Source: a virus. Taken from it: DNA of 40,200 bases. The first letter of the stretch is position 1. Every line of letters starts with the position of its first letter. The notes beneath the pieces were generated by a model. It ran no database searches, had not been told where the DNA came from, and was given only the letters and a program-made list of their open reading frames with translations. The stretch spans positions 1 to 40,200 of the IMG/VR virus record IMGVR_UViG_3300028920_000694. One strand, given 5' to 3'. The position numbers and the translations under genes were made by a program. This document shows, in pieces, positions 5,793-40,037 of the stretch.

Positions 5793-5958
5793 AGATAATG
5801 GATTTGAGGTATCTAGTAGATACAATGCAACTAAGACTATATATATGAATAAGGATAAGAACATTCATATAGTGGTTGAGGTAGATGAAGGACAATTCAC
5901 TGAAGCAGATGAAGAAAGAGTCAAAGAAAGACTCAGAGCACTGGGGTATTTGGATTGA
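5755..5958 (+). CDS. small hypothetical protein ending in ERLRALGYLD motif
   Basis: C-terminal DEERVKERLRALGYLD, a tail typical of many AlkP/sulfatase-family proteins. Confidence 0.65.
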   Translation: MMKEFESICKVLEDNGFEVSSRYNATKTIYMNKDKNIHIVVEVDEGQFTEADEERVKERLRALGYLD

Positions 5959-6392
5959 AAAGAAAGTATCATAAAGGATGTGTGGAAAATCTCAATGATC
6001 CAGGTCCATATACAAAAACACATCCAATATATCCAATGAAAGACAAAGTAGAAAAGCCTTGGGGTTCATATGAAGTTCTTCTAAGTGAACCTAAATATGT
6101 AATAAAGAGAATCATAGTCAAACCTGAACAGAGATTGAGCTATCAATATCATGGATATCGTGATGAGACTTGGGTATTAATAGAAGGTTGTGGTGATGTA
6201 ACCATAAATGGTGAAACAAGATATTTAGATTCTACAGAAAATCCAATACACATATTAAGAGGAGAATTACATAGAGTTACAAATACATTGAATGATAGGG
6301 ATTTAGTGTTCATTGAGATTCAGACTGGAGATAAATTAGATGAGGCAGATATCATTAGATTAGAAGATGATTATGGGAGAGCAGATAAATGA
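5955..6392 (+). CDS. mannose-6-phosphate isomerase type II C-terminal (cupin) domain protein
   Basis: KPWGSYEVL, KRIIVKP.QRLSYQYH..R.E.W, HR..N, FIEIQTG..L.E.DIIRLEDDYGR; start may be 6036. Confidence 0.9.
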   Translation: MKRKYHKGCVENLNDPGPYTKTHPIYPMKDKVEKPWGSYEVLLSEPKYVIKRIIVKPEQRLSYQYHGYRDETWVLIEGCGDVTINGETRYLDSTENPIHILRGELHRVTNTLNDRDLVFIEIQTGDKLDEADIIRLEDDYGRADK

Positions 6393-7078
6393 AAGCAATT
6401 ATAATGGCTGCTGGTAAAGGAACAAGGCTTGCTCCACTTACAGATACACAACCTAAATGTATGGTGAAAGTGAAAGAGATTCCAATGATTATAAGAACTA
6501 TCAACACACTCATCAATGGAGTAGGAATTCCAATATCAGATATCATAGTCATCACTGGATACATGCAAGGAATCATTCATCAGTATTGTGCCCTCATGGC
6601 AAGTAAAGGTCTCACTTTCATTACTCAATTCAGAGCAGATGGGACTGCAAATGCAATCAATCTAGCAAAGAAGCACATAAAAGAAGACTTTCTAGTTCTA
6701 TCTGGAGATATAGTCTACAATAAATGTGACCTGATGAAGTTGAGACAGTTGAAGAATTCTATTCTATATACAAAACAAGATGAGAAACTCTATGAGTATG
6801 GAACTCTAGATATATGTGGAGACAAAATCAAAGCAATTCATGAGAAGTCTACAGAGCCTACATCTCATTTTGTCAACTGTGGAACATATCATTTCACACC
6901 AGAAGTATTTGACTACATACCTAAGACATCTGTGGATGAGAGATTCAATGAAAGAATCATCACCAACACCATCAATCTAATGATTAAGGATGGAATTGAA
7001 TTCACTGGAATAAGAGTGAAGGAATTAAATGAGATAACTTATCCAGAAGATATAGAGAAAGTGGAGGGAAGATTATGA
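6389..7078 (+). CDS. sugar-1-phosphate nucleotidyltransferase
   Basis: MKAIIMAAGKGTRLAPLTDTQPKCM, GTANAI, VLSGD, EKS. Confidence 0.9.
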   Translation: MKAIIMAAGKGTRLAPLTDTQPKCMVKVKEIPMIIRTINTLINGVGIPISDIIVITGYMQGIIHQYCALMASKGLTFITQFRADGTANAINLAKKHIKEDFLVLSGDIVYNKCDLMKLRQLKNSILYTKQDEKLYEYGTLDICGDKIKAIHEKSTEPTSHFVNCGTYHFTPEVFDYIPKTSVDERFNERIITNTINLMIKDGIEFTGIRVKELNEITYPEDIEKVEGRL

Positions 7079-8013
7079 AGAAGAAGATAATAATAACAGG
7101 AAGTAGTGGATTCATTGGTTCTGCACTTGTGAAATGGCTGCATAGAAAGTATGAGATATATGGAATTGATAGAAGACCACCATCTGATGAACTATTTAAT
7201 ATAAAAGACTTCAGACATTATCAATATGATATAGTAGATAAACTACCTAATCTACAGATGAATGGGGAGATATATGCAGTGATACATCTAGCAGCCAGAC
7301 CTGGAGTTAGAGACTCTAGAGAGAACTTTGAAGGTGTATGTAGAGATAACATACTTGGAACTCAGAGAATTCTAGATAAATGTGTGGATGATTGGAAACC
7401 AGAGATGCTTCTACTTGCGAGTTCATCTAGTGTATATGGAGATAATGGAAGTGATGGACATCCTCTTAAGGAGACAGATGCAGTGAATCCAAGAAGTCCT
7501 TATGCTATGAGTAAGCTGGCTGATGAAATGTTGATGCATACATATATGAACTCTGGACTTCTAGATGGAATAGAATGTTCTGCACTCAGATTCTTCACTG
7601 TCTTTGGACCTAATCAAAGAAATGAACTATCCATTCGAGCATTCACTGATTGGATTCTTAGAGATGAACCAATCACTCTCTATGGAACAGGAGAGCAATT
7701 ACGTGATTTTACTCATATAGATGATATCTGCAGTGGAATAGAAACTCTCTTAGATGCGGATATAATTCCACATTTAAGTAGTATACATAACATAGGTTCT
7801 GGAGATTCACATTCAATCAATGAGATAATTCACTTCATAGGAACATATCTACAGAAAGAAGTCAAGATTAACTATCAACCTAGAAACATATTTGATGTAG
7901 ACAAAACACTTGCAGATACATATAGAATGAAAGATTTAGGATGGCATCCTAAAGTAGATTTCTGGGATGGACTGAGAGGACAGATTGAATGGCAGAAGGA
8001 GCAGATGAAATGA
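7075..8013 (+). CDS. NAD-dependent nucleotide-sugar epimerase (UDP-glucuronate 4-epimerase-like)
   Basis: TGSSGFIG, HLAARPGVRDS, ASSSSVYG, YAMSK, LRFFTVFGP, RDFTHIDD. Confidence 0.9.
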   Translation: MKKKIIITGSSGFIGSALVKWLHRKYEIYGIDRRPPSDELFNIKDFRHYQYDIVDKLPNLQMNGEIYAVIHLAARPGVRDSRENFEGVCRDNILGTQRILDKCVDDWKPEMLLLASSSSVYGDNGSDGHPLKETDAVNPRSPYAMSKLADEMLMHTYMNSGLLDGIECSALRFFTVFGPNQRNELSIRAFTDWILRDEPITLYGTGEQLRDFTHIDDICSGIETLLDADIIPHLSSIHNIGSGDSHSINEIIHFIGTYLQKEVKINYQPRNIFDVDKTLADTYRMKDLGWHPKVDFWDGLRGQIEWQKEQMK

Positions 8014-8270
8014 ACTGTCCAGAATGTGGAGCAGAATTAGAAGCAGGTACAGTAGACTTGAATACCATTGGCTGGTGTTGCTCTAAATGTGGAATTAAGA
8101 TATATAAGAAAAAGAGTGAATTAGATAGAGTGATTGAGAAGTGGGAACCTATCATAAAAGAAATGGCTGAACAATCAGAAAGAGATTTCTATGAGTTATC
8201 TAAAATAATCTTCACTGTAGCAATTCAAGATGCATATAAATTAGCAGATTCAATAGGATGGAAAGAATGA
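8010..8270 (+). CDS. zinc-ribbon hypothetical protein
   Basis: MNCPECG...WCCSKCG; ATGA-coupled on both sides. Confidence 0.65.
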   Translation: MNCPECGAELEAGTVDLNTIGWCCSKCGIKIYKKKSELDRVIEKWEPIIKEMAEQSERDFYELSKIIFTVAIQDAYKLADSIGWKE

Positions 8271-9166
8271 AATTTGATATATGTATGGCATTCGACAAGG
8301 CAGAGTATCTCAATCCAGAGATATATCTGATGCTAGATACATTGAAGAATAAGATAGATGATGATACAGTTCTTCATATAGTCACTAACAGATCTAAAGA
8401 TGATGAAATGAGGAAGTTCATTAAGGAGGACTTCAACAGCAAGATATACTATGTATCTAAAGACCTAGTGAATTCACTGGACTCCAGATGCAGATATATG
8501 CTGAACTGCTTCAAGATGAAGACAGATAAGGAATGGGTGATGAAGATAGAGGCAGATGTGTTGTTCCTGAAACATCTATCTGAATATGAATCTCTACTTA
8601 AGGATGATTTGGATTTGGTGATTGAACCAGAGAATAGAAAGATATTCCCAGATGAATTTGAGACTAGACTCTGGAGACTAATGTATAGAGCAATGAAGAT
8701 AAAGGTACCCACAGAGAAGATACAGTTTAGAGAGAATGGAGAGATGGGACTACCTTTATTTGGAACAGGCATATTCTTTGTGAAGAGTAAGCATCTAGAC
8801 ACAATCAATAAGAGATGGATGAAGTTGACTCAGATATGTGAGAGGTGGATGCATATGAATGTTCATCCTAATGAACAAGCATTCACTGGAATGGCTCTAG
8901 ATGAAGGCTGGAAGATACATCTGTATCATCCTAGATACAAGTTCAATCCCATCGGGCACTGGAGAAAGGATGCATTTCCATCAGTTGAATTGATTGATGA
9001 TTGTGTGCTTCCAGGAGATACAGTCTGCTTTGACTATCATAGACCAGAATGGTTAATGCATGTAGCAAAGTTCAATAAATCAATATCAGATATCGTATGT
9101 AGAAATGATAAATATATACCAAAAGAGTGGTGGAATCTAGGAATGGGAGATTTTCATGAAAGATAA
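8267..9166 (+). CDS. putative GT-A fold glycosyltransferase (GT8-like, divergent)
   Basis: IEADVLF (DxD-like), FGTGIFF, NEQAF, YKFNP, late His (DYHRP) in GT8-like order. Confidence 0.6.
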   Translation: MKFDICMAFDKAEYLNPEIYLMLDTLKNKIDDDTVLHIVTNRSKDDEMRKFIKEDFNSKIYYVSKDLVNSLDSRCRYMLNCFKMKTDKEWVMKIEADVLFLKHLSEYESLLKDDLDLVIEPENRKIFPDEFETRLWRLMYRAMKIKVPTEKIQFRENGEMGLPLFGTGIFFVKSKHLDTINKRWMKLTQICERWMHMNVHPNEQAFTGMALDEGWKIHLYHPRYKFNPIGHWRKDAFPSVELIDDCVLPGDTVCFDYHRPEWLMHVAKFNKSISDIVCRNDKYIPKEWWNLGMGDFHER

Positions 9167-9348: not shown

Positions 9349-9795
9349 ATGAGAACTGCAATAGTTATACCTAATATAGGATTTAGTAGAAATCAGCAAG
9401 CAATATTAAGAACTGCAGAAGCATTTGGAGTGTCCGAAATATGTGTTCTTGGGGATATAAAATTATCTGGAAATAGAATATCTAGAGGAGCACAAAGACA
9501 TATTAAGATATCGCACTTCAAGAATGAAGAAGAATGTATTAATTACCTAATTAAAAATAGATATAAATTAATATCTATAGAGAATGATGATGATTCATAT
9601 TCATTACCAGGATTTAAATTTCCTGCTAGAGTAGCATTGATTGCTGGACATGAGAGACTTGGAGTTCCAAAAGAATTTCTAGATGCATCTAAGCATATAA
9701 GAATCCCTCAATTTGGATTGATGAAATGCCTCAATACATCTATAGCAACATCTATTGTATTATATGAAAGATTTAAACAAGGATTAAAGATATGA
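9349..9795 (+). CDS. SpoU/TrmH family (SPOUT) RNA 2'-O-methyltransferase
   Basis: N...ILRTAEAFG, GHERLGV, IRIPQFGLMKCLNTSIATSIVLYE. Confidence 0.88.
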   Translation: MRTAIVIPNIGFSRNQQAILRTAEAFGVSEICVLGDIKLSGNRISRGAQRHIKISHFKNEEECINYLIKNRYKLISIENDDDSYSLPGFKFPARVALIAGHERLGVPKEFLDASKHIRIPQFGLMKCLNTSIATSIVLYERFKQGLKI

Positions 9796-10700
9796 ATATA
9801 GGTCACTTTAATGCTAGAGGCTTTAATGATGTAGAGCACTGGTTCACTATAATCAATAGAGAACTGAGTTCTAGAGGTCATGAAGTTAGACATTTCAATC
9901 TAAGAGCTCAGAGACCACTGAAGTGGGATATAGAATGGATGGACTTTGGAGTGATGCATTTCAGTCAAGTAGCACACTTCTATAGAAAGATGGGAATTCC
10001 ATTCTGTGTGCTTCCATCAGCTAATGATTGTCTAGTAGATGATGGTAAGAGACTTAAAGAAGTCAGTGAGCATCCAAACTGTAAGTTCGTGACTTATCAG
10101 AGTGCATTCCATTTAAGGAAGTATAATGAATGGGGAATCAAGCCACCATATGTATATGTTCCAATGCCTGCTAGAGTAAACTTATTTCAGAGAGAGACTC
10201 CTCTAGGAAATAAGATAATTGCTGGTGGAAGACTAATTCCAAAGAAAGGACTACATCAATTGAAGGATGTGGAGAATCTAACCATCTTTGGAGATGGACC
10301 ACTAAAGCAGGAGCTAGAGAAACAACTACCCAATGCAGAGTTTGTTGGATGGTTAGATGGAAAGGAATTAAAGGAATTGATGGAAGATAGTTGGTTATTC
10401 TTATGTCCAAGTGTAATCACTTCTGATGGTGATAGTGAAGGGATTCCAAATACAATTAAGGAAGCGATGCTGATGAATCTACAGGTGATTGCTAGTCCTA
10501 TTGCAGGCATTCCTGAACTAGAGAACATTTGTTTATTGAGTGACTGGAATAGAATTAATGGATGCATAGATGTCACAGAAAGAAATCCTAATTGGAAAGG
10601 AATGAAAGAAATCACACATATGTATTCACCAGAGCATTGTGTGAATTTATTGATGGATGGAATTGAGAAATATGGGACATATAGGAAAAAGAAAGTTTAA
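9792..10700 (+). CDS. GT4 family glycosyltransferase (WcaL-like)
   Basis: GRLIPKKG, GDGPL, PSVITSDGDSEGIPNTIKEAM, GIPE. Confidence 0.88.
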   Translation: MNIGHFNARGFNDVEHWFTIINRELSSRGHEVRHFNLRAQRPLKWDIEWMDFGVMHFSQVAHFYRKMGIPFCVLPSANDCLVDDGKRLKEVSEHPNCKFVTYQSAFHLRKYNEWGIKPPYVYVPMPARVNLFQRETPLGNKIIAGGRLIPKKGLHQLKDVENLTIFGDGPLKQELEKQLPNAEFVGWLDGKELKELMEDSWLFLCPSVITSDGDSEGIPNTIKEAMLMNLQVIASPIAGIPELENICLLSDWNRINGCIDVTERNPNWKGMKEITHMYSPEHCVNLLMDGIEKYGTYRKKKV

Positions 10701-11265
10701 AGCAGAAACTATAGAAGGATTCAGTGACTTCAATAGATTAGGAACTATGCCATTGATGTCTGAACTTGAGACTAAAACCATAGTCAAATATCTAAAACCT
10801 GAATATGTGATGTTTGAATGGGGTTCAGGTGGATCTACAGTATACTTTCCACAGTTTGTCAAGAGATATTATTCAGTGGAGCATCAACCTCACTGGTTTA
10901 GAATAATTAGGAACAAATTAAGGCACATGCCAGAGATAAAGAAAAGAGTGAATATAATGTATAAACCCCAGAGTGCACTATTTGGATTTAAAGATAATGA
11001 TTTCAAGAGAGAATGGTTTATGGATTACATTGAATCTATAGGAATTGTGGGTGAGAAGAGATTTGATGCAATTCTAGTAGATGGTGAAAATAGAACTAGG
11101 AGATTCTGTGCTGAAGAAGCAAGAAAGTATATGGATGAAGATTCAGTATTGTTCATTCATGACTATGATGATAGACCAGACACTCATAAAGTAGAAGAGA
11201 TATATGATATAATAGAAAAGGTAGAGGATGATAATTCTCTGGTAGTTATGAAGGTGAAGAAATGA
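10657..11265 (+). CDS. class I SAM-dependent methyltransferase (putative glycan O-methyltransferase)
   Basis: FEWGSGGST, SVEH, FDAILVDG, FIHDY; start may be 10672. Confidence 0.78.
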   Translation: MELRNMGHIGKRKFKAETIEGFSDFNRLGTMPLMSELETKTIVKYLKPEYVMFEWGSGGSTVYFPQFVKRYYSVEHQPHWFRIIRNKLRHMPEIKKRVNIMYKPQSALFGFKDNDFKREWFMDYIESIGIVGEKRFDAILVDGENRTRRFCAEEARKYMDEDSVLFIHDYDDRPDTHKVEEIYDIIEKVEDDNSLVVMKVKK

Positions 11266-12131
11266 TTTGGGGAGTAGGAGCTAGAAGAACAGGAACTAAT
11301 CTGCTTCGGGCTATTCTGGGTGCACATTCACAAATAGTTGCTACACCTACAGATATAGATGTGTTCCTAATGCATCATGATATATCTAAATATGATTTCA
11401 ATAATGTTCTGGATAAAAGAACTATATATAAAGAACTGCTAGGTAATTCTCATCTGACTCGACCATACATCAGAGATGGATGGGATATTGACCTTAGGAA
11501 ATTAAAAACAGATATCAATAAGTGTAATGATGCATCATGTGTAATTGCTTCATTGTTTATCAACTTCTTTAGAAAGTATTCAGAACCTCACTGGTGTCAT
11601 GTTCAGCATTCATTTGAATATGCAAATGAACTAGAGGAGATATTTCCATCACCTAAATATATCTATATGTATAGAAATCCATTAGATGTAGCTGCATCTG
11701 CAAAAACACATGCAATGAAAAGAAGAAAGTTAAATTATAATAAGAATATCATTCTGGAATCATGTAGAGAAATAAATAGGTGTCATCAAGGATATCTTGA
11801 CATTGTAAATAAATATGATGATGATAGGATTCTTTATGTTAGATATGGTGATTTAGTATATAGCAAAGAATTAGAAATCAAGAGAATCACAGACTTTCTA
11901 GGATTGAAGTTTGAACCTAATCAGATGAAGTTCAATGAACACTATACAGTAAAAGGTGGACTTCCATATTATTCTAATTCATCATACAAATCAAAAAGAG
12001 ATAATAGCTGGGGCAAATACTGGAAGGAATACAAAGGAGAGGAATTAATATACAGTAGTTCTGTAGATAAATGGAAAGATATTCTTACTGATGAAGAAGT
12101 GGAGTTGGTGAAACGTGAAATTCACAGATAA
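11262..12131 (+). CDS. sulfotransferase
   Basis: 5'-PSB GARRTGTNLL, 3'-PB YRNPLDVAAS, VRYGDLV...ITDFLGLKFE, SVDKWK. Confidence 0.85.
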   Translation: MIWGVGARRTGTNLLRAILGAHSQIVATPTDIDVFLMHHDISKYDFNNVLDKRTIYKELLGNSHLTRPYIRDGWDIDLRKLKTDINKCNDASCVIASLFINFFRKYSEPHWCHVQHSFEYANELEEIFPSPKYIYMYRNPLDVAASAKTHAMKRRKLNYNKNIILESCREINRCHQGYLDIVNKYDDDRILYVRYGDLVYSKELEIKRITDFLGLKFEPNQMKFNEHYTVKGGLPYYSNSSYKSKRDNSWGKYWKEYKGEELIYSSSVDKWKDILTDEEVELVKREIHR

Positions 12132-12756
12132 GCAACTAAAACAAATGGCTAGCATATTCTACTATAAGAATCTGGTAGAGAGATATCGAGTCATGGAGAA
12201 ATATTTTGACATTCAAGAAGGGGACACTGTGATTGATTGTGGAAGTTTCTCTGGAGATATGCTAAATTACTTTAGCAAGAAGGTTGGAAAGACTGGAAAG
12301 GTATATTCTATTGAGGCATTGCCATCTAATGTTCAGCAGATAAAAAGATTATGTAGATATCAAATGATGAATAATGTAGAGATAGTTCCAATTGCTCTGT
12401 GGAATAAGAAAGAGAAAATAAAGTTCTATCTATCTAAATATCCAAATGCAGGAAGTGGAATCAAAGAGTTTAGGAAAGTTTCTGAAGACTATATAGAAGT
12501 AGATGCAGATGCTCTAGATAATTTAAATATAGAGAACCCTAAATGGTTATGGTCAAATATAGAAGGTGCAGAAGTAAAAGCCCTAGTTGGAGCAGAAGAT
12601 ATTCTCAAGAACAATGATATGCAGGTTTGTATCTCAACTCATAAAGTGACTGATGAATATTCAACTACTAGAGATGTATGGGATTATCTAGAATATTGTG
12701 GATATAAATGTGAGTATGTAAAGAATCATGGAATGTGGGTGTATGGCAAAAAGTGA
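12115..12756 (+). CDS. FkbM family methyltransferase
   Basis: GDTVIDCGSFSG, VYSIEA, ALWNK, LD...NIEGAEVKALVGA; GTG start. Confidence 0.85.
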   Translation: MKFTDKQLKQMASIFYYKNLVERYRVMEKYFDIQEGDTVIDCGSFSGDMLNYFSKKVGKTGKVYSIEALPSNVQQIKRLCRYQMMNNVEIVPIALWNKKEKIKFYLSKYPNAGSGIKEFRKVSEDYIEVDADALDNLNIENPKWLWSNIEGAEVKALVGAEDILKNNDMQVCISTHKVTDEYSTTRDVWDYLEYCGYKCEYVKNHGMWVYGKK

Positions 12757-12886
12757 TGTAGAGATAATTCAACAGATGGAAACATTAATAAATGCAATAG
12801 ATTACTATAGAGAAAAAGAAGATTGGATGCAAGTAGAATATCTACATGGTCAATTAAGTGCATTAGGTTGGGTGATATCTAAATGA
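12743..12886 (+). CDS. small hypothetical protein (47 aa; not in ORF track)
   Basis: Hand translation MAKSDVEIIQQMETLINAIDYYREKEDWMQVEYLHGQLSALGWVISK*; ATGA-coupled to next gene. Confidence 0.6.
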   Translation: MAKSDVEIIQQMETLINAIDYYREKEDWMQVEYLHGQLSALGWVISK

Positions 12887-15071: not shown

Positions 15072-15072
15072 A

Positions 15073-32596: not shown

Positions 32597-33187
32597 ATGA
32601 TTTGTATAATACCAGCAAGAAAAGGAAGTAAGAGACTTCCAAATAAGAATAAGAAGATGCTATGTGGAAAGCCTATGATTGCATATACTATAGAAGCAGC
32701 AAAGAAATCCAAATATATAGATATTATTATAGTATCAACTGATGATGAAGATATAGCAAAGATTGCAAAAGACTATAAAGTATATGATTATAAAAGACCA
32801 TCAGAACTAGCAGGTGATAATGTTCCTATGGTGGAAGTATTAAGATATGTAATAAGGCAATTACCAATAGGTTATCCAAAAGATGGAAGAATAGTTGAAC
32901 TACTTCCAACATCCCCACTCAGGATAACTAAAGATATAGACAGATGTATAGAAGCATATATGTCTAGTGGATTCAGTTCAATCATCACAGCAACTAAATC
33001 AATTAACAATTCATTCAGGATGAATGGTTCAGTGTATGTAACTCATGTAAATATCATAGAGAACAATGATAAAGAGTGGGATGATAATGTAGGAATAGTT
33101 CTGATGCCAAATGAAAGGTCAGTTGATGTAGATACACAAGGAGATTTTGAAATGGCTGAAATGTTAATGGAGATGAGAAATGAATAG
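32597..33187 (+). CDS. neuA: acylneuraminate cytidylyltransferase
   Basis: IIPARKGSKRLPNKN, VSTDD, RP.ELA, PTSPLR, NGSVY, SVDVDT..DF. Confidence 0.88.
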   Translation: MICIIPARKGSKRLPNKNKKMLCGKPMIAYTIEAAKKSKYIDIIIVSTDDEDIAKIAKDYKVYDYKRPSELAGDNVPMVEVLRYVIRQLPIGYPKDGRIVELLPTSPLRITKDIDRCIEAYMSSGFSSIITATKSINNSFRMNGSVYVTHVNIIENNDKEWDDNVGIVLMPNERSVDVDTQGDFEMAEMLMEMRNE

Positions 33188-34133
33188 TTTTGATATAGAG
33201 AATGAGTTTTATCTCACATGTCATCCAGATAGAATAAAGAAGTTACTAGCCCAACACAGAATATATGAATGGACATTAGATGTAGAAGGAGATATAGTTG
33301 AATGTGGAGTGTTCAAGGGTGCATCTCTTTCTAGATTTGCTATGTTCAATAAGATACATAATCAGAAGAAAAAAGTGATTGGATTTGATACATTCACTAC
33401 ATATCCAATAGTTACTGATGAGGATGCTCCATTAAGGAATCACTTTGTCAAGGAAGCTGGAGATGGCATTCATGACCTAGTACTTAAGATGTATTGTGAT
33501 ATACGAGATTTGGATGTGGAACTAGTCAAAGGAGATATATGCAACACTGTTCCTAAATATATATCACAACATCCAAAGATTAAAATATCTTTAATCAACA
33601 TGGATTGTGATGTATATGAACCAACCAAGATAGCTATGGACTATCTGATTCCTAGACTATCTGATGGTGGAATCATCATCTTTGATAATTATGAAACATT
33701 CTATGGAGAGACAAAGGCAGTAGATATGGAATATGAGCCAGAGAGAATAAATGAATATATGGGACTGAATTATGTAGTTAAGCTCCCTAGTGATGAATAT
33801 CCAATGACATATATATTTGATATAGATGGAACTCTAAATGACCCAAATACTGAATATCTAGGAGACAATCAACCATATAAGTATAGAGATGTGATTCCAG
33901 ATGAGAATATGATTAAGATGGTGAATCATCTATATGAGCAAGGGAATGAAATAATTCTAATGACTGGTAGAGGCTCTACTAGCAAGATAGACTGGAGAGA
34001 GTTCACAGAGAATCAATTAAAGGAATGGGGAGTTAAATATCATAAACTAGAGATGGTAGATAAGCCACCTAGATATACATATGTAGATGACATGGCTGTT
34101 TCACCTAGAGAGTTTTGGGAGATAATAGAATGA
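33180..34133 (+). CDS. fusion: TylF/MycF-family O-methyltransferase plus HAD phosphatase (BcbF/EcbF-like)
   Basis: N-part GDIVECGVFKG, GFDTF, DCDVYEPT, GGIIIFDNY; C-part FDIDGTL, TGRG, WGVKYHKL...KP...YVDD. Confidence 0.85.
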   Translation: MNSFDIENEFYLTCHPDRIKKLLAQHRIYEWTLDVEGDIVECGVFKGASLSRFAMFNKIHNQKKKVIGFDTFTTYPIVTDEDAPLRNHFVKEAGDGIHDLVLKMYCDIRDLDVELVKGDICNTVPKYISQHPKIKISLINMDCDVYEPTKIAMDYLIPRLSDGGIIIFDNYETFYGETKAVDMEYEPERINEYMGLNYVVKLPSDEYPMTYIFDIDGTLNDPNTEYLGDNQPYKYRDVIPDENMIKMVNHLYEQGNEIILMTGRGSTSKIDWREFTENQLKEWGVKYHKLEMVDKPPRYTYVDDMAVSPREFWEIIE

Positions 34134-34804
34134 TAATAATAGCAGAAGCAGGAATTAATCATCATGGAAGTTTAGATGATGCAATGAAATTAGTGGATGC
34201 AGCTAAATATGCTGGAGCAGATGCAGTTAAGTTCCAGACATTTTGGAATATATATAGATTAAATGACTATGAACTAAGAACAGGTCAGTGGATAGCATTG
34301 AAGAATTATTGTGATGAACAGGAAATCACATTCTTATCTACACCACACACATTTCATGCAATCCATTTTCTAGAGGATATGGTTCCTATGTATAAGATAG
34401 CAAGTCAATTTCTATATAATCCTAACTTTCTGATGGAAGTAGCAAACAAAGGTAAACCAGTCATTCTATCTACAGGTAGTTTGAATCATATCAATGGTAT
34501 GGCCACAACAGAAGAGATAATGATGGCACTCAAATGGCTTCATGGAACTCCACAATTATCTCTACTCCAGTGTGTAAGTAAGTATCCATGTGAAGATAGC
34601 CATTCAGAAAGAATAGATGAGCTTAGGAAGATGTGTCTAAATGTAGGTCTATCTGACCACACAAAGAATCTAAAGCCAATGAAAGGATTATCTATATATG
34701 AGAAGCATCTGAAGTTAAGTGGAACTACACCTATAGATGATGAGGTATCTATTGATGAACATGAATTCAAAAGAATGGTAGAATATTTGAGGAAGAAGAA
34801 ATGA
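34130..34804 (+). CDS. neuB: N-acetylneuraminate (nonulosonic acid) synthase family, no SAF domain
   Basis: IIAEAGINHHG, GADAVKFQT, YKIAS, KPVILSTG, CVSKYP, GLSDHT, YEKH. Confidence 0.9.
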   Translation: MIIIAEAGINHHGSLDDAMKLVDAAKYAGADAVKFQTFWNIYRLNDYELRTGQWIALKNYCDEQEITFLSTPHTFHAIHFLEDMVPMYKIASQFLYNPNFLMEVANKGKPVILSTGSLNHINGMATTEEIMMALKWLHGTPQLSLLQCVSKYPCEDSHSERIDELRKMCLNVGLSDHTKNLKPMKGLSIYEKHLKLSGTTPIDDEVSIDEHEFKRMVEYLRKKK

Positions 34805-36540
34805 ATGTAATCGGTTTGTTTGGAGAAGGCCCTAATCCTGCAGCCTGTCTTATGATAGATGGAGAAATCATAGCTGCTGCAGAAGAAGAAAGGTTTGTAA
34901 GAGTAAAGAAAGCAAGTGCATATCAACCAATGAATGCAATAAAGTATGTTATGGATGTAGGAAATGTATCTCTAGAAGATATAGATAAAATAGTAGTTGC
35001 ATGGGATCATAGAAAATATCCTAAATGGATAAAGAAATACAATAAGAAGCACCTGAAGAATCGAGCTAGAATAGATTATCTAATAGAGGAGAATCATAAT
35101 CTGTTACATGACTATGAGTATCTTACATATAGATTAAGGATTAATTTAGGGAAGTTAGGATTCAATACAGATAAATACATGCCACCTGTTATATCTGTTC
35201 CTCATCATGAAGCACATGCATATTCAGCATTCTATAATTCAGGATTCAAAGAAGCAGGTGTATTGGTTCTTGATGGTTCTGGTGAAGAAAAGTGCACCAC
35301 ATTCTGGTCAGCAGATGAATATGGAATATCCAAAATAGATAAAGAATTCACTATCCCTAACTCACTAGGATGGATGTATGCTGCAGTGACAGAGTTCCTT
35401 GGATTTCGAGGGCATTCAGATGAAGGAAAGACTATGGGACTTGCACCTTATGGTAAATACAACCAGTGGGTGATAGATAAATTGAAGAAGATAATTCAAT
35501 ATGATGAAAAAGGAAACTATAAGATAAATCCATCATACATATACTTCAACAAGAGAACTAGAAGCACTAGATTCACAGATAAGTTTATGAAAGAGTTTGG
35601 TGAACCTCATATTTCAGGAACTCCATTTACAGAATTACATAAGGATATAGCATATGGAGTTCAATGGATTCTAGAAGATGTAGTCAAGAAATTAGTTAGA
35701 CAATTAATCAAAGAAACAGGATACAGTAATATTTGTATAGCAGGAGGTGTAGGGATGAACTGTAAATCTAATGGAGTGGTGAATCAGATGCCTGAAGTGG
35801 ATAATCTATTTGTATTTCCAGCATCTACAGATGAAGGAACTGCTATAGGTGCAGCAATGAGAGAATTCTATCCAGATTATTGGGAATCTATACAACCACC
35901 AACTAATGATAAATTAGTTAGCACTAGCTTTGGACCAGAGTTTTCAGATGAAGAAATTGAATCTGTTTTGAATGAATTGAAATTGAAATATAGATACTGC
36001 AGGAATATATATAAAGAAGTTGCAAAGAAACTAGCAGATGGAGAAGTAGTTGGATGGTTCCAAGGCAGAATGGAGTTTGGAGCTAGAGCACTTGGGAACA
36101 GAAGCATTCTAGCTGACCCTAGAGGAGCAGATAAGAAAGACTATATCAATGACCATGTAAAGCATAGAGAACCATTTAGACCTTATTGTCCATCACTTCT
36201 AGAGGAAGATAAGGATAAGTATCTAAAGAATGCAAAGGATGCTCCATTCATGATAGTTGCATATGAAGCACAAGATGGAGTTAAGGATAGGATTCCTGCA
36301 GTGGTTCATGTAGATAATACAGTGAGACCACAAACAGTGAATAAGCAAGTAAATCCACTCTACTGGAATCTAATCAATGAATTCAAGAAACTAACTGGAG
36401 AAGGAATTCTATTAAATACATCATTTAATGTAAGAGGAGAACCAATTGTATGTAAACCTATAGAAGCAATCAGATGTTTCTATGGCACAGGAATGGATAG
36501 TTTAGCAATAGGAAGTTATTTATTGGAGAAAGAGAAATGA
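34801..36540 (+). CDS. carbamoyltransferase (NodU/CmcH family)
   Basis: AAAEEERF.R.K, HHEAHA.SAF, DGSGE, EGKTMGLAPYG, AGGV.MNC, GRMEFGARALGNRSILADP, KHREPFRP, LLNTSFNVRGEPIV. Confidence 0.95.
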   Translation: MNVIGLFGEGPNPAACLMIDGEIIAAAEEERFVRVKKASAYQPMNAIKYVMDVGNVSLEDIDKIVVAWDHRKYPKWIKKYNKKHLKNRARIDYLIEENHNLLHDYEYLTYRLRINLGKLGFNTDKYMPPVISVPHHEAHAYSAFYNSGFKEAGVLVLDGSGEEKCTTFWSADEYGISKIDKEFTIPNSLGWMYAAVTEFLGFRGHSDEGKTMGLAPYGKYNQWVIDKLKKIIQYDEKGNYKINPSYIYFNKRTRSTRFTDKFMKEFGEPHISGTPFTELHKDIAYGVQWILEDVVKKLVRQLIKETGYSNICIAGGVGMNCKSNGVVNQMPEVDNLFVFPASTDEGTAIGAAMREFYPDYWESIQPPTNDKLVSTSFGPEFSDEEIESVLNELKLKYRYCRNIYKEVAKKLADGEVVGWFQGRMEFGARALGNRSILADPRGADKKDYINDHVKHREPFRPYCPSLLEEDKDKYLKNAKDAPFMIVAYEAQDGVKDRIPAVVHVDNTVRPQTVNKQVNPLYWNLINEFKKLTGEGILLNTSFNVRGEPIVCKPIEAIRCFYGTGMDSLAIGSYLLEKEK

Positions 36541-37334
36541 AGATATTAGTAGCAACATATCATAGAGCCTCTGATGGAGCACTCTCAAAGCTCATTCAGA
36601 AGATGAAAGATGAGGATTTGTATACAGAATATTATGAAGAAGCTGATTGGATACTTATTCCTGGTGATAGAGAGGAATCATTTGGAATGGCTCTCAAGGC
36701 ATTTAAAGACAACAAGAAAATGATACATCTATGGGCTGGAGAATATACACCAACGTGGGAGACTCACAATGATGTGTATAGGCATGCAATTACTCTAATG
36801 AGTCATATTCAACTATGCACCAATGATGAAGCAAAAGAAAGAGTTAAGGCACTCTGCAAGTCTGTAGGTAAACAATTCTTTGTAACTGTAGTTGGAAATG
36901 TTATGTTGGATAACATGGAAGATATAGATGAATCAGATGTTCCAGAAGAAGAATATGATTTAGTTCTATATAATCCACCAAGCAGACTATCTGAAGAGAA
37001 AGTAGAGAAAGACATCTCAATAATTAAAAGCATAGTCAACAAGAATCATATCTGGTTGCCTCCAAATGGAGATTTACATAGTCATCTAGTGATGCCTCAT
37101 GTGAATTCAGAGAATCTACCTAGACCTAAGTTTCTTGGGCTTCTAAAGAACTGTAAGAGATATCTAAGTAATTCATCTAATATATATTATGAAGCCACTC
37201 ACCTTCTGGAAGAGAATCAGATTGCAGTTATTGGATTAAGGAACAAATTCAGAGAATCTAGAACTGGAAATATGAGAATTCCAAATGCAAGTAAGAACAT
37301 CATGATGGTATTGAGGCAGTTGATAAATGAGTAG
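36537..37334 (+). CDS. neuC: UDP-N-acetylglucosamine 2-epimerase (hydrolysing, NeuC-like), shortened
   Basis: ATYHRAS, PGDREE, HLWAGE, YRHAITLMSH, VVGN..LD, PNGD, SNSS, IGLRNK.RE. Confidence 0.72.
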   Translation: MKILVATYHRASDGALSKLIQKMKDEDLYTEYYEEADWILIPGDREESFGMALKAFKDNKKMIHLWAGEYTPTWETHNDVYRHAITLMSHIQLCTNDEAKERVKALCKSVGKQFFVTVVGNVMLDNMEDIDESDVPEEEYDLVLYNPPSRLSEEKVEKDISIIKSIVNKNHIWLPPNGDLHSHLVMPHVNSENLPRPKFLGLLKNCKRYLSNSSNIYYEATHLLEENQIAVIGLRNKFRESRTGNMRIPNASKNIMMVLRQLINE

Positions 37335-37692
37335 ATTTAAGAATTGGAAGAAACCATTCTTTGATGATTATGGTTGGGCAAATAAATATAAAGATGTCTT
37401 GGAATTTGAAGGTCTCTATGGATGGAGATGTCAATATCCAGAGAATCTAACTCTAGGAGATAAAGTTGATATAGGATGCTTCACATATCTAAATGCTAAG
37501 TATGGAATAGAGATAGGAGACAATGTTCAGATAGGTGCTCATTGTGCCATCTATTCAGATAACACAGAGAATGAAACTCATGGAAAAGTAACTATAGGAG
37601 AGAATTCATTGATAGGTTCATATACACTGATTCTTCCAGGAGCAACTATTCCACCTAATTCAAAGATACCTGCAAGGAGCATAATCAAGTGA
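37327..37692 (+). CDS. left-handed beta-helix (hexapeptide repeat) acyltransferase
   Basis: LTLGDKVDIG, IEIGDNVQIG, VTIGENSLIG...ILPG. Confidence 0.87.
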   Translation: MSRFKNWKKPFFDDYGWANKYKDVLEFEGLYGWRCQYPENLTLGDKVDIGCFTYLNAKYGIEIGDNVQIGAHCAIYSDNTENETHGKVTIGENSLIGSYTLILPGATIPPNSKIPARSIIK

Positions 37693-38651
37693 AGAAAATA
37701 CTTGTAACAGGTGGAGCTGGATATTTAGGTTCAGTTCTTTGCAGAAAATTACTAGACAAAGGATATCAAGTCAGAGTGCTAGATAAACTTCTATTTAGTG
37801 ATGGAGGAATACAAGAACTTTATGATAACAAGAAATTCCAATTCATATATGGAGACATCAGAGATGCACCAACTATTAAAAAGGCAATCAAGAAAATGGA
37901 TGCAGTGATTCATTTAGCTGCAATTGTAAATGACCCTGCATCAGCAGTTAATCCAGAATTGACTGAAAAAGTTAATTATCATTCTAGTAGAGAACTTGCA
38001 AAGATGTGTTGGTCATCTGGAGTCAATAGATTCATCTATTCATCTACATGCAGTGTATATGGAGCAAGCAAATCAAGTAGACTTCTAACTGAGAAATCTA
38101 AATTAAATCCTGTATCCATATATGGAAAGACTAAATTGATGGCAGAGAAAGATATACTAGAGTTCTCTGATTATGGATTCTCACCAACTGTATTCAGAAT
38201 GGCTACCCTTCATGGAGTCTCACCTAGAATGAGATTTGATTTAGCAGTGAATGTGATGACAGCGATGGCTAAATATAAAAAACAGTTTAAAGTGTTTGGT
38301 GGAGAACAGTGGAGAGCATTCTGTCACATCCAAGATGCAGCAGATGCATATCTACAATGTCTAGAAACACCAACAGAGAAAGTGAATGGTGAGATATTTA
38401 ATATAGCAACAGAGAATCAGAAGATAATAGAATTAGGCAAACATATAGAGTTAGTGGTTCCAGATTCAAAGATGATTATTGATAAGAAGAATGTAGATAT
38501 AAGAAATTATAGAGTATCTGGAAAGAAGTTTGGACTTAGGAACAGATTCACCATATCTGATAGCATTCAAGAAATAATGAATGGTTCATATATGGACTTT
38601 GAAGATGACATATATCATAATTATAGAATAATGAAGGTGTTGAATGATTAA
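37689..38651 (+). CDS. NAD-dependent epimerase/dehydratase
   Basis: TGGAGYLG, GDIRD, HLAAI, SSTCSVYG, YGKTK, SPRMRFDL.VN; GTG start. Confidence 0.9.
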   Translation: MKKILVTGGAGYLGSVLCRKLLDKGYQVRVLDKLLFSDGGIQELYDNKKFQFIYGDIRDAPTIKKAIKKMDAVIHLAAIVNDPASAVNPELTEKVNYHSSRELAKMCWSSGVNRFIYSSTCSVYGASKSSRLLTEKSKLNPVSIYGKTKLMAEKDILEFSDYGFSPTVFRMATLHGVSPRMRFDLAVNVMTAMAKYKKQFKVFGGEQWRAFCHIQDAADAYLQCLETPTEKVNGEIFNIATENQKIIELGKHIELVVPDSKMIIDKKNVDIRNYRVSGKKFGLRNRFTISDSIQEIMNGSYMDFEDDIYHNYRIMKVLND

Positions 38652-39240
38652 ATATATAGAGTGGGATGAGGAGAAACTGCAGCAGTGGTTTAAAGATAAA
38701 TTCAGGAAGAGAGGCTTAGATATACGTGAGTATATCTTTCTAACCAAGTTCATTAGAGAGATAGAACCAGAGATAGTGATTGATGTAGGAACATTTCTAG
38801 GAGCATCTGGATATATACTAGGAACATCATCACCCAAATTAAAGAAACTATATGCTCTGGAACATCATCATGGATCTACATATTCAGGACCATATAAAGG
38901 ATTAGTTAAGACAGAAGACTATGGAAAGTATCTACCTGAGTATGCTATATTCAAAACAATTGGATATGAAATAGATTTAGAACCAATACTCAAAGAACAT
39001 GAAGGTGGAGATGTATTTATCTTCTTTGATTCAGGTAAGAATCCAATGAGAATCTTTCATCAAGTTCAGATGTGTTATCAGTATAAGATAAGATATGTTG
39101 CATTTCATGATACCAAGACACCACAGGTGAGAAGAGGAATCAAGAGAGTTAAAGAATTAGGATTATATAGAATACACAGTGAATGTTTAGATGCACCTGA
39201 TGAAGGTAAGAAAGGAGTGACTATTCTAGAACTATGTTAG
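38644..39240 (+). CDS. class I SAM-dependent methyltransferase-like protein
   Basis: VIDVGTFLGAS, IFFDS, VAFHD. Confidence 0.65.
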   Translation: MIKYIEWDEEKLQQWFKDKFRKRGLDIREYIFLTKFIREIEPEIVIDVGTFLGASGYILGTSSPKLKKLYALEHHHGSTYSGPYKGLVKTEDYGKYLPEYAIFKTIGYEIDLEPILKEHEGGDVFIFFDSGKNPMRIFHQVQMCYQYKIRYVAFHDTKTPQVRRGIKRVKELGLYRIHSECLDAPDEGKKGVTILELC

Positions 39241-40037
39241 TTATTTCAATTGATGGACTCAACTGGAAGTATGCATCTGAGATATATAAAGACTTATTCA
39301 AAACACAATCAAGTAGAATGATTAGATGTGATGTAAGGGTATTTTCAATGAGAGGAGTATCTGCAACCCCTATAGGATTAACATGTGCATGGTCTGGAGA
39401 AAGAATCAAGAATCTGCATCCATGTTTCTTCACTAGATTTGATGATAAATATAAGAAAGAATCATTCATCTGGAAAGATAAGAATGGAAATGATTTAGAT
39501 TTAGTCTGGAATCACTTCAAGCATCCTAAGTTCTTTGAGAAGGTTGTAGGTGATTCACCATATGCTGGAGAGCAGATATGGAAGTTCTATCATAGTCTAC
39601 CTAATGTGAAGAGGGTGCCTTGTGAGGAACTCTGTATCTTTGCAGAGGCTGCTAGAAAGGATTATGACTTGTTCTGGATACATTCATCTATAGTAAAAGG
39701 TGGAGTAATGTTTCCAGGTCCATATGAGCTAGGTAGACTTCCTGCACTGATTCCTTATGATGATATAAGAAAGGATAAACCATTAAAGAAAGATGTATAT
39801 CTATGTGGCATCCGTAGATATAAAGAAGTTATTAGATGGCTAGAAGAACTATCTGGTGGACAGACTATAGTAGTTACATCTGACCATGGAACACTGGTAG
39901 ATGTGAATGAACCACTAGCACCCCAGATAGATAATATACCCTTAATTGTAAATAGAAAAATAGATTTAGAGGAGGTACGGTTCCAATGGAACTTAAAAGA
40001 TTTAATTCTCAAGTTGAAAAAGACAGAAAATATATAG
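39234..40037 (+). CDS. alkaline phosphatase superfamily metalloenzyme
   Basis: LVISIDGL, SATP (candidate Thr nucleophile), YDLFWIH, VVTSDHG, IPLIV. Confidence 0.7.
   Translation: MLVISIDGLNWKYASEIYKDLFKTQSSRMIRCDVRVFSMRGVSATPIGLTCAWSGERIKNLHPCFFTRFDDKYKKESFIWKDKNGNDLDLVWNHFKHPKFFEKVVGDSPYAGEQIWKFYHSLPNVKRVPCEELCIFAEAARKDYDLFWIHSSIVKGGVMFPGPYELGRLPALIPYDDIRKDKPLKKDVYLCGIRRYKEVIRWLEELSGGQTIVVTSDHGTLVDVNEPLAPQIDNIPLIVNRKIDLEEVRFQWNLKDLILKLKKTENI

Follow-up and report, generated by a model that had tools for sequence, protein, structure and literature searches.

The first 40,200 nt of a 115-kb contig from an uncultured tailed virus of marine sediment (the whole stretch analysed, hereafter the window) open into a block of sugar genes that extends from position 5955 to contig position 45,444 (39.5 kb, 53 ORFs, 34% of the contig). 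A family of tailed viruses keeps this cluster, with varying content, fixed against the tail module and made up of a conserved core and exchangeable modules, and on balance we think it probable that the block builds a virus-specific, tailored O-glycan in the host cytoplasm which is put on the surface proteins of the virion (decoration and tail-tip/fibre proteins). An earlier note, made from the window alone, had described a glycan cluster of ~34 kb (5955-40037); the cluster is confirmed and is larger than was claimed, since it runs past the window.

Profile searches of the whole contig recovered the terminase, portal, HK97 capsid, prohead protease, tape measure and tail genes, with the Caudoviricetes hallmarks phrog_38 (E 5e-92), phrog_9232 (E 1e-20) and phrog_9427 (E 6e-17) and, in Pfam, PF05065 (E 9e-9) and PF10145 (E 3e-28). 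The contig is that of a tailed virus (Caudoviricetes), and the terminase, capsid and portal that the earlier note had proposed to look for are all there. The virus very likely infects archaea, which had been suggested with a "perhaps", judging from its archaeal-type information-processing genes: S17e, the single ribosomal-protein gene on the contig, scores above the NCBIfam cut-off (75 vs 72 bits), Alba, RadA, PolB and PriS are matched, each below its NCBIfam cut-off, and ERCC4 is matched as well, while family profile searches of the contig gave no match to a lysin or holin family. The host is perhaps a member of the Thermoplasmatota; one exported viral protein has Thermoplasmatota clusters as its neighbours in structure (TM 0.78 and 0.75). 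No archaeal genome carrying a related locus was found among 11 loci from one GTDB scan, and one relative sits in a bacterial genome bin; the binned contigs of relatives have 31-32% GC and are viral throughout the parts examined. The contig ends are collinear with relatives, which extend 0.4-4.7 kb there, and the five records searched are 49-87% complete by CheckV.

The block is tightly packed, with 49 of its 52 junctions overlapping or at most 10 bp apart, and its final stop codon lies directly against that of the last tail gene, which is on the opposite strand. Between 5955 and 40037 there are 45 plus-strand ORFs of at least 55 aa, in agreement with the "over 40" co-oriented, coupled genes reported before; 37 of 46 ORFs in this interval have a Pfam match at E <= 0.01, in 34 cases to enzyme kinds typical of glycan clusters. 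The features of the block and its surroundings are as follows (percentages are identities to relatives):

217..666, plus strand: DSP-like phosphatase upstream of the block (Pfam DSPc E 2e-5; 62/55/49% in G001/G002/G006)
663..1565, plus: alkaline-phosphatase/sulfatase-superfamily protein (ESM Atlas features 0.95 to sulfatase clusters; 74/74/75%, the most conserved gene of the system)
2329..4533, plus: ribonucleotide reductase with intein, flank outside the block (Ribonuc_red_lgC E 6e-102, Intein_splicing E 6e-16)
5955..8013, plus: sugar-isomerase cupin, nucleotidyltransferase, NAD-dependent epimerase (Pfam); ORFs 6389 (nucleotidyltransferase, 33-49%) and 7075 (epimerase, 45-48%) are family core genes, compared in three relatives
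8258..9166, plus: core transferase 1, GT-A protein of GT8-like fold (fold match, conservation)
9349..9795, plus: SpoU-type methyltransferase (Pfam E 2e-22), with no counterpart among the relatives compared
9792..10700, plus: core transferase 2, GT4-type (GT-B) (Pfam Glyco_trans_1_4 E 7e-14; 50-59% in three relatives)
10657..13776, plus: O-methyltransferase, sulfotransferase, FkbM methyltransferase (above NCBIfam cut-off), PAPS-reductase-family protein (phrog_424 E 1e-56) (Pfam)
13769..16121, plus: 4,6-dehydratase/epimerase, cupin, small ORF, short DegT-type aminotransferase (246 aa) (Pfam; best NCBIfam matches LegB and PseC, both below cut-off)
16118..17948, plus: variable transferases, a Glyco_trans_1_2 protein (ORF 16118, Pfam E 2e-12) and a GT-B-like protein (ORF 17031)
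17945..23247, plus: RfaE-like PfkB kinase (NCBIfam rfaE_dom_I E 3e-15, below cut-off), three radical SAM/SPASM enzymes, split transketolase pair (Pfam)
23244..25194, plus: RmlD-type reductase, C-methyltransferase in two ORFs (249 + 122 aa) (Pfam)
25191..26841, plus: two paralogous candidate CMP-nonulosonate transferases (CstII/Maf-like; weak fold match)
26885..34133 (part), plus: TIM-barrel isomerase, SDR, O-methyltransferase, two radical SAM/SPASM enzymes (Pfam)
26885..34133 (part), plus: two CMP-sugar synthetases, sulfotransferase, TylF methyltransferase-HAD phosphatase fusion (Pfam; PseF is the best NCBIfam match, below cut-off)
34115..37692 (part), plus: short NeuB synthase (229 aa; Pfam NeuB E 2e-40), carbamoyltransferase (Carbam_trans E 3e-69)
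34115..37692 (part), plus: short NeuC-like 2-epimerase (265 aa; Epimerase_2 E 3e-22), hexapeptide acyltransferase (Hexapep E 2e-11)
37689..40037, plus: epimerase (ORF 37689, Pfam E 9e-49), probable methyltransferase (ORF 38644, 26% to a G001 Methyltransf_24 protein), second probable phosphatase/sulfatase-superfamily protein (ORF 39234)
contig 39,986-45,444 (part; window 39986..40200), plus: methyltransferase, epimerase, HddA-like kinase
contig 39,986-45,444 (part): GmhA-like isomerase, NDP-sugar dehydrogenase
contig 42,678-43,730: core transferase 3, GT2-like

The five radical SAM/SPASM genes, the split transketolase pair, the heptose-pathway genes and the extension past the window had gone unnoticed in the earlier note. 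The product of 663..1565 is a candidate sulfo- or phospho-transferase; the haloarchaeal Agl30/Agl31, described as sulfating N-glycans, belong to the same superfamily (PMC11980604). ORF 39234 has no family match and is 45% identical to a G001 protein adjoining phosphonate genes; its superfamily was assigned by eye and is probable.

Some of the block enzymes are short or split. The split C-methyltransferase is a single ORF in G001 and G002, and the split recurs without an indel in a second study's contig. Positions 20001-40000 are covered at even depth and without indels by two sequencing runs from two studies, so the block is not an assembly artefact. Its codon use resembles that of the virus's own genes (r 0.98 and 0.93), its GC is matched too, and the block genes are under purifying selection, 26 of 39 changed codons being synonymous against 20% by chance.

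None of the 53 ORFs is polytopic in a hydropathy scan, which gave one marginal single segment in one ORF at a threshold of 1.8 and single-segment ORFs in 3 of 53 at 1.6. No Pfam match to Wzx, Wzy, ABC, AglB or initiating-transferase families was obtained for the 57 window ORFs or the 116 other contig ORFs (173 in total), and the only membrane protein on the contig is a small one of three segments. The earlier statement that the block lacks polytopic and export genes thus holds, also for the region just outside the window. With no flippase, polymerase, ABC exporter, initiating transferase or oligosaccharyltransferase (OST), the block is not a cellular O-antigen, capsule or S-layer locus.

The search for syntenic clusters that had been proposed placed the cluster at the same site in all five related contigs spanning the tail junction (this contig included), and its size in the four contigs measured ranges from 19.5 to >41 kb. 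Three core transferases (8258, 9792 and contig 42,678) are conserved in all four, and heptose, nonulosonate, phosphonate and radical-SAM modules are swapped between relatives. The G006 contig has the largest cluster, which holds three small hydrophobic ORFs, and it carries a clear GT29 (E 2e-26). No cluster-less relative was found, hence there is no within-family control.

The earlier count of about six transferases stands as six candidates within 5955-40037 (8258, 9792, 16118, 17031, 25191 and 25978), of which only 9792 and 16118 have a Pfam glycosyltransferase match; the others were called by fold or by motif. The fold match is good for 8258 (model pLDDT 78), whose neighbours LARGE1, XXYLT1, UGGT and LgtC (E 5e-10 to 4e-9) are mostly chain-extending enzymes; it superposes on LgtC with Z 16.5 and rmsd 3.4 over 232 residues, and has its fold in common with a PBCV-1 capsid transferase (Z 13.1). 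The fold is like that of GT8 at 9-14% identity, with no Pfam, NCBIfam or PDB profile match. Being 40-58% identical in three relatives and having 13 matches among 1.84 billion representatives, 8258 is by its sequence virus-family-specific. ORFs 25191 and 25978 (264-287 aa) have no Pfam match and a low-confidence model (pLDDT 61); their best fold rows are CstII (E 1e-3) and Maf (E 7e-3), none reaching E <= 0.001, and since they are absent from G001 they are not the core initiators. ORF 17031, with no family match and no significant PDB profile match, has paralogues in G002 and G006 and is presumably GT-B-like and heptosyltransferase-like, from a motif only. A conserved GT4 at contig 113,306 lies just behind the DNA polymerase and a dCMP deaminase; its closest PDB entry is chlorovirus B736L (E 1e-17), which according to the published account may act on an acceptor other than the capsid. 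Predicted soluble, virus-encoded transferases are therefore kept across the family, as in a virion glycosylation system.

Virion proteins had been named as the most likely target, and this is supported by a Ser-Gly bias in the outward-facing proteins. Ser-Gly, the dipeptide of proteoglycan attachment in animals, ranks first among dipeptides in the structural modules of G000, G001 and G002 (1.85, 1.68 and 1.72x), with Gly-Ser at 0.96-1.21 and Thr-Gly at 0.82-0.88, and reaches 0.87-1.19x in their non-structural genes and 0.93-1.33x in eight reference viruses. It is enriched in capsid-decoration (74 vs 31.7, 2.3x) and tail-tip/fibre proteins (514 vs 264, 1.9x) and not in the capsid (0.61x), tape measure (0.63x), protease (1.01x), neck/chaperone (1.06x) or tail tube (1.15x); the major capsid and tail tube proteins, which are glycosylated in mycobacteriophages, thus show no bias here. 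Among 239 soluble structural-module proteins Ser-Gly counts 1058 vs 634 and N-X-S/T 737 vs 784, and among eight proteins with an N-terminal hydrophobic segment 36 vs 26.7 and 144 vs 65.5, respectively. The attachment sites would probably be the serines of Ser-Gly pairs in decoration and tip/fibre proteins. The excess may also reflect no more than a turn motif of fibres rich in beta structure: in 14 fibre-like controls Ser-Gly is at 1.49x, Gly-Ser at 1.95 and Thr-Gly at 1.60, and two control loci reach Ser-Gly 1.48 and 1.58x. In G006 Ser-Gly is only 1.31x, inside its own shuffles, despite the largest cluster, and in G005 1.65x (17 proteins) is not above the shuffle maximum. The Ser of Ser-Gly is conserved at 0.57 vs 0.43 for other Ser; the Thr of Thr-Gly is conserved equally (0.57 vs 0.41), with the same replacements, so conservation does not single out serine.

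In the virion-glycan reading that we favour, host hexose phosphates would be converted into nucleotide-activated deoxy-, amino-, C-methyl, heptose and nonulosonate sugars, the transferases 8258, 9792 and contig 42,678, perhaps with the GT4 at contig 113,306, would lay a common core, and the variable transferases with the methyl-, sulfo-, carbamoyl-, acyl- and radical-SAM enzymes would give each virus its own outer structure. In sediment, such a coat could protect the particle against proteases and against unproductive binding, or it could modulate attachment; its variability would be akin to surface-antigen switching. Virus-encoded particle glycosylation has reported precedents in mycobacteriophages, STIV and chloroviruses. 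More tentatively, the contigs might represent a hitherto undescribed family of large archaeal tailed viruses with complete sequon-directed O-glycosylation, whose core transferases would recognise Ser-Gly in decoration/fibre proteins. Through exchangeable 20-41 kb modules, the coat of each virus would carry its individual set of sulfate, methyl, nonulosonate or phosphonate groups, in analogy to serotype variation and separate from host N-glycosylation of exported viral proteins.

Large sugar clusters are already known in cyanophages, pelagiphages and giant viruses; an archaeal tailed-virus family with such a cluster was not found in the literature searched. The earlier word "exceptional" for a prokaryotic virus therefore applies to the size and to archaea and not to multi-gene sugar clusters as such, which are described in cyanophages and pelagiphages. 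The P-SSM2 "LPS" clusters comprise 24 genes in two clusters, the main one of 15 (PMC1079782, PMC7824862), and these and the pelagimyophage host recognition cluster (PMC7029224) are likewise variable sugar-gene sets of tailed prokaryotic viruses, sharing epimerases, kinases, methyl-/carbamoyltransferases, glycosyltransferases and radical-SAM cassettes near tail-fibre genes. However, as those accounts describe them, they belong to T4-like bacterial viruses, are divided up or interspersed with fibre and other genes and are read as host-LPS modifiers, whereas the 53 ORFs of the present block form one uninterrupted unit, in a family of tape-measure viruses that is probably archaeal and has core transferases specific to it. 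The giant-virus clusters (Megavirinae 6-33 genes; CroV 38 kb, 34 ORFs; chlorovirus soluble transferases; PMC9614988) are reported to be alike in size, soluble enzymes, own nucleotide-sugar synthesis and clade-specific content, but have eukaryotic hosts, genomes several times larger and chemically shown glycans, the glycan of the present block being a predicted one. In mycobacteriophages (PMC12619734, PMC11256854), tailed viruses whose own glycosyltransferases modify particle proteins in the cytoplasm, a few transferases are described with capsid and tail tube as targets, against about 40 enzymes here, sugar synthesis included, and candidate sites in decoration and fibre proteins. Among archaeal viruses, glycosyltransferases such as STIV A197 (PMC10551542) are likewise GT-A enzymes, the STIV capsid being glycosylated, and methanogen viruses (PMC9723712) carry O-antigen-type sugar-pathway genes; the cited reports describe single or few genes, with sugar donors presumed to come from the host, and not a 20-41 kb family-wide block. 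Maf flagellin O-glycosylation, as described, offers a cytoplasmic, membrane-independent transfer of nonulosonic acids to Ser/Thr of an assembling surface structure, with NeuA/B/C-type genes beside Maf/CstII-like transferases as in the present block, but here the proteins resemble Maf only weakly, by fold, and have no G001 counterpart.

The main rival, which we consider rather unlikely, is that viral sugars and soluble transferases extend host lipid-linked glycans on the cytoplasmic face, and that host flippase and OST load them onto S-layer or membrane proteins, the virus's exported ones included, blocking superinfection or changing cell adhesion. This is the printed reading of cyanophage, pelagiphage and methanogen-virus sugar genes. 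As the host supplies flippase and OST, the lack of viral membrane genes is compatible with it, and the N-X-S/T-rich membrane-anchored proteins, the heptose, nonulosonate and sulfotransferase genes, whose kinds match cell-surface pathways, and the small hydrophobic ORFs of G006 fit as well. It leaves unexplained, however, the family-specific core transferases, the fixed tail-module junction and the Ser-Gly bias in soluble virion proteins, and an integrase in 0/5 records searched (all incomplete) does not indicate a long cell-associated phase.

It is improbable that the block, in whole or in part, serves to make a small molecule that is derived from sugar and stays free, be it a toxin, a signal or a solute. 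An idea of this sort has been put forward for a cyanophage cluster. The five radical SAM/SPASM enzymes, the carbamoyltransferase, TylF and the C-methyltransferases speak for it, being kinds that are found in natural-product clusters as well, but seven transferase candidates, two CMP-sugar synthetases and the sialyltransferase-like genes point to a conjugated glycan, and there is no exporter. It is quite improbable that the block hypermodifies viral DNA with sugars against host nucleases, as phage glycosyltransferases are reported to do (PMC13326640; bioRxiv 10.1101/2023.12.21.572611), although the position of the conserved GT4 and the presence of MazG, a PAPS-reductase-family gene and a carbamoyltransferase would suit it. 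Known routes require a hydroxylated base; thymidylate synthase (PF00303) was found in 0/5 records (49-87% complete), the control being matched in 10/14, C5-methylase (PF00145) gave a weak match in G002 only, and TET/JBP (PF12851) was matched nowhere, controls included. Two adenine-type methyltransferases and an Ocr-like protein are also retained by the virus. To our knowledge, forty enzymes with nonulosonate and heptose routes go far beyond the described DNA-modification systems. Finally, a cellular locus for surface polysaccharides, or a host island that was captured recently and is decaying, to which S17e, the bacterial bin and the short or split enzymes might point, is very improbable given the full virion module, the syntenic clusters, the matched GC and codon use, the purifying selection and the lack of export genes; an ordinary cellular locus is ruled out for this contig by the viral hallmarks, S17e being the only ribosomal gene beside them.

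Large sugar clusters of tailed prokaryotic viruses are usually read, without a test, as host-surface modifiers. This family allows a sharp one, with few virus-specific core transferases and a candidate acceptor motif restricted to proteins that face outwards. If the virion-glycan reading is true, archaeal tailed viruses in sediments would build glycan coats on the scale of giant viruses, spending up to a third of the genome. Either way, the clusters would be a source of unexplored sugar chemistry, with five predicted radical SAM/SPASM enzymes per virus, phosphonate/nonulosonate routes and a family-specific GT-A enzyme, and the sugar genes of sediment viromes that are tallied as metabolic "auxiliary" genes may have their role in the particle rather than in metabolism.

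The earlier note described a block of about 34 kb with more than 40 co-oriented, coupled glycan genes. Within 5955-40037 the plus strand carries 45 ORFs that reach 55 aa or more, and the block proved larger still. The window makes up bases 1-40,200 of a single contig (115,333 bp, 34% GC), and the block runs past it to contig position 45,444. In all it holds 53 ORFs and takes up 39.5 kb, or 34% of the contig; at 49 of the 52 junctions the neighbouring ORFs overlap or are separated by no more than 10 bp. Pfam gave matches for 37 of the 46 ORFs submitted from 5955-40037, 34 of them enzyme kinds typical of glycan clusters, as are six of the eight ORFs of the extension. The sugar-forming set comprises nucleotidyl transfer, five epimerase/dehydratase/reductase genes, a short DegT aminotransferase and a split C-methyltransferase; it is accompanied by nonulosonate-type genes (NeuB-type, NeuC-type and two NeuA-type) and by GmhA-, HddA- and RfaE-like genes, a HAD domain and a split transketolase that likely constitute a heptose route. 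Five radical SAM/SPASM genes, two sulfotransferases, a carbamoyltransferase, an acyltransferase and several O-methyltransferases would tailor the product. Since nearly all NCBIfam matches fall under the curated cut-offs, the exact substrates are putative. A Kyte-Doolittle scan gave one marginal segment in one of the 53 ORFs and no polytopic protein, and the Wzx, Wzy, ABC, AglB and initiating-transferase families had no match among 173 ORFs scanned on the contig. Ahead of the block, a ribonucleotide reductase gene with an intein lies at 2329-4533; the copy in the related viral record G001 has 503 aa and shares 79% identity with it across the part that aligns.

The stretch 20001-40000 is evenly covered and indel-free in two runs from two marine-sediment studies, one of the runs being possibly the source of the contig. 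The contig of the second study shows 88 differences there, and among the 40 places listed 26 of 39 changed codons are synonymous, vs 20% by chance. Those 40 differences are patchy and spare the interval from 22,335 to 26,409, a pattern that hints at strain recombination. An assembly error as the cause of the split C-methyltransferase was rejected, since the second study's contig is indel-free over this stretch. Codon use in the block correlates with that of the virus's own replication (r 0.98) and structural genes (r 0.93). A sigma-70 promoter scan returned 28 sites vs 49 in shuffles, the consensus being unsuited to an archaeal host. No RNA data set was listed as containing the block, which bears neither way on its expression.

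The viral nature of the DNA is borne out on the full contig, which carries genes for the large terminase, portal, prohead protease, HK97-type capsid and tape measure. It also encodes an S17e protein along with Alba, RadA, family-B polymerase, PriS-like and ERCC4 proteins, and because of these genes the host is very likely archaeal. Two of them are located as follows (L001 to L004 are stretches of the contig).

Contig 102,707-102,988 (L004:6707-6988): archaeal ribosomal protein S17e, with a Lys/Arg-rich tail, above its NCBIfam cut-off
Contig 80,063-80,404 (L003:3063-3404): Alba-like gene between terminase and portal, 42-59% identical in all relatives examined

The S17e gene has a homologue in G001 (38%); a homologue search gave four proteins, all without names, and the term is absent from the best literature matches in one search on the subject. 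The Alba-like protein is perhaps a packaged DNA-binding protein. When one domain of an exported viral protein was compared by structure, Thermoplasmatota clusters ranked first and second; the homologues of that protein bear no informative names. One GTDB scan yielded no archaeal genome that would link a provirus to its host, and its two close matches are viral contigs in bacterial bins. Contigs of this virus family (G006:C35, G006:C139 and L098) lie inside public bacterial bins of Actinomycetota and Saccharibacteria, probably through mis-binning. Among cultured phages none is closely related (the best terminase match stands at 27%; for PolB there are only three weak records). CheckV puts the completeness of the record at 68%, but in three relatives the stretch between the right-end GT4 and the left-end genes measures no more than 0.4, about 2.8 and 4.7 kb. 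The contig therefore probably lacks little, and this gene order in relatives is also what bears on a joining of its two ends. An Ocr-like acidic protein is encoded at contig 87,528-87,944 (L003:10528-10944; Pfam E 0.002, PHROG E 3e-5), and a small membrane-anchored protein with a collagen repeat lies among the replication genes at 97,078-97,749 (L004:1078-1749).

A terminase search of IMG/VR gave 11 relatives at 44-57%, and a terminase profile search 34 loci. The end of the tail module is reached in four of the ten relatives' records examined, and cluster genes are found there in all four; because the other six stop short of this junction, no cluster-less relative is known.

Clusters in the relatives
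G001: 19.5 kb, 27 ORFs
G002: 31.8 kb, 40 ORFs
G006: at least 41.5 kb, 52 ORFs, on two viral contigs in a bacterial bin
G007: cluster's end only

Three transferases are common to the four measured clusters (those of our contig, G001, G002 and G006), namely the ORFs starting at 8258 (40-58%), 9792 (50-59%) and contig 42,678 (33-46%), together with an epimerase and a nucleotidyltransferase. Just upstream lie four further conserved genes: a GT4 (61-65%), its neighbour (50-60%) and those for a DSP-like protein and a sulfatase-superfamily protein (74-75%). The remaining genes are swapped between relatives. Thus the G001 cluster has PEP mutase and other phosphonate genes (a PEP mutase-cytidylyltransferase fusion, a TPP enzyme and an Fe-alcohol dehydrogenase at G001 80,313-82,673, L082:4313-6670), WbqC and a GDP-mannose dehydratase, that of G002 heptose genes, NeuA/B and five radical SAM genes, and that of G006 a GT29 sialyltransferase, a formyltransferase and full-length NeuB/NeuC.

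TRANSFERASES

The ORF 8258 has only 13 matches among 1.84 billion representative proteins, and a direct IMG/VR search with it gave no match. Its model (pLDDT 78) has a GT8-like fold matching LARGE1, XXYLT1, UGGT and LgtC, with Z scores of 16.5 for LgtC, 16.4 for GlyE, 14.7 for glycogenin and 13.1 for a PBCV-1 capsid transferase; since most of these fold relatives extend chains, the fold does not name the initiator. The GT2-like protein at contig 42,678 matches chondroitin synthase (E 6e-6), and the pair 25191/25978, poorly modelled (pLDDT 61), has CstII and Maf as best rows (E 1e-3 to 7e-3). Chlorovirus B736L, itself without an assigned acceptor, is by far the nearest to the GT4 at contig 113,306 (E 1e-17). 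From its motif we take 17031 to be GT-B-like, the profile search being not significant. PDB profile searches identified none of 8258, 17031, 25191/25978 and contig 112,319, and a GtfA/GtfB-like pairing of contig 112,319 with 113,306, considered by analogy, was unsupported, as the two show no mutual profile similarity.

A Ser-Gly motif was first picked up while reading the virion genes. It ranks above all other dipeptides in the structural modules of our contig, G000 (152 vs 82), of G001 (312 vs 186) and of G002 (240 vs 140), where Gly-Ser stands at 0.96-1.21x, Thr-Gly at 0.82-0.88x and Asn-Gly at 0.62-0.65x; in non-structural genes Ser-Gly is at 0.87-1.19x. We pooled nine contigs, leaving out G003 and G008 (duplicates of G002 and G007) and G009 (little tail), and Ser-Gly exceeded the maximum of 300 shuffles in seven of them, the exceptions being G006:C35 (1.31x) and G005. 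With proteins classed by position and homology, the enrichment falls on the putative decoration (2.34x) and tip/fibre (1.94x) proteins, the other classes being tail tube (1.15x), neck/chaperone (1.06x), protease (1.01x), tape measure (0.63x) and capsid (0.61x). Control viruses gave 1.33 (HRTV-27), 1.12 (vir524), 1.21 (HVTV-1), 1.18 (T5), 1.30 (P-SSM2 fibres), 0.93 (psiM2), 1.23 (Che8) and 1.31 (HFTV1), and eight other control loci 1.09-1.58; 14 composition-matched fibre-like control proteins reached 1.49x, but with Gly-Ser at 1.95 and Thr-Gly at 1.60. Internal repeats were rejected as the source, unique contexts still giving 1.56-1.80x in G000-G002, and the excess is still 1.48x once Ile-Ser-Gly is removed. 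The bias is real and family-wide, and Ser-Gly pairs, as a candidate acceptor motif, may mark glycosylation sites; they may serve as a beta-turn motif instead. Orthologue alignments speak against the glycosylation reading: the Ser of Ser-Gly is conserved at 0.57 vs 0.43 for other Ser, but the Thr of Thr-Gly likewise at 0.57 vs 0.41, and both are replaced by the same range of residues. Two paralogous tail-tube-like genes lie at contig 68,196-69,149 (L002); G004 and G010 have four such genes, and almost every copy contains a single conserved [IVF]-Ser-Gly site. Small putative decoration proteins are encoded at contig 71,433-71,684 and 73,452-73,856, and genes of this kind are frequently duplicated too.

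The tail module also encodes membrane-anchored proteins.

Contig 60,495-62,588 (L002:2495-4588): membrane-anchored protein
Contig 56,603-58,054 (L001:17603-19054): membrane-anchored protein

N-X-S/T is abundant in the first of these and in its relatives, reaching 89 vs 33 in a G005 protein of 2196 aa, which suggests host N-glycosylation. Among the pooled proteins, the eight with an N-terminal hydrophobic segment have N-X-S/T at 144 vs 65.5 and Ser-Gly at 36 vs 26.7, and the 239 without one 737 vs 784 and 1058 vs 634, respectively. The virus's exported proteins appear to use host N-glycosylation and not the viral pathway.

On balance we favour a reading in which the block enzymes, working in the cytoplasm, would produce activated sugars and build a tailored O-glycan, the conserved transferases laying the core and the variable modules adding the outer part, and the glycan would be attached to outward-facing virion proteins. 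The assembly of tailed particles takes place in the cytoplasm and bypasses the host export route, in keeping with a pathway whose enzymes are all soluble. Remodelling of host-made surface glycans, the main rival, likewise needs no viral membrane genes and has an appreciable though clearly smaller chance of being correct; an integrase, however, was found in none of five records. A small-molecule product is improbable, and modification of viral DNA slightly more so, since a thymidylate-synthase homologue is found in none of five records (the control matched 10 of 14); a C5-methylase match is confined to G002 and weak, and a Tet_JBP (TET) search matched nowhere, controls included, and is thus uninformative on this route. 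That the block is a cellular or decaying locus is very improbable indeed.

The available portions of published accounts describe 24 'LPS' genes in two clusters in P-SSM2 (PMC1079782), the main one holding 15 genes by another account (PMC7824862), and, in pelagimyophages, a host recognition cluster of variable content that includes transferases and radical-SAM cassettes (PMC7029224), all interpreted there as host-surface modifiers. They likewise give 6-33 genes for Megavirinae clusters and 38 kb with 34 ORFs for CroV (PMC9614988), and report particle glycosylation in mycobacteriophages (PMC12619734, PMC11256854) and STIV (PMC10551542), O-antigen-type genes in methanogen viruses (PMC9723712) and sulfation of haloarchaeal N-glycans by sulfatase-superfamily proteins (PMC11980604). 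The words glycosyl, sugar, polysaccharide and glycan occur nowhere in the main text of an archaeal tailed virus survey (PMC8651126), and the available portions of PMC10541130, PMC13452462 and PMC13437554 hold nothing of comparable size. The family and its cluster are unreported in the best literature matches, among which subscription papers are underrepresented, and supplementary catalogues could already list the genomes. The glycan cluster is real, maintained, family-wide and of unusual size in these probably archaeal tailed viruses, and the cluster family pairs this size with a testable candidate acceptor motif.
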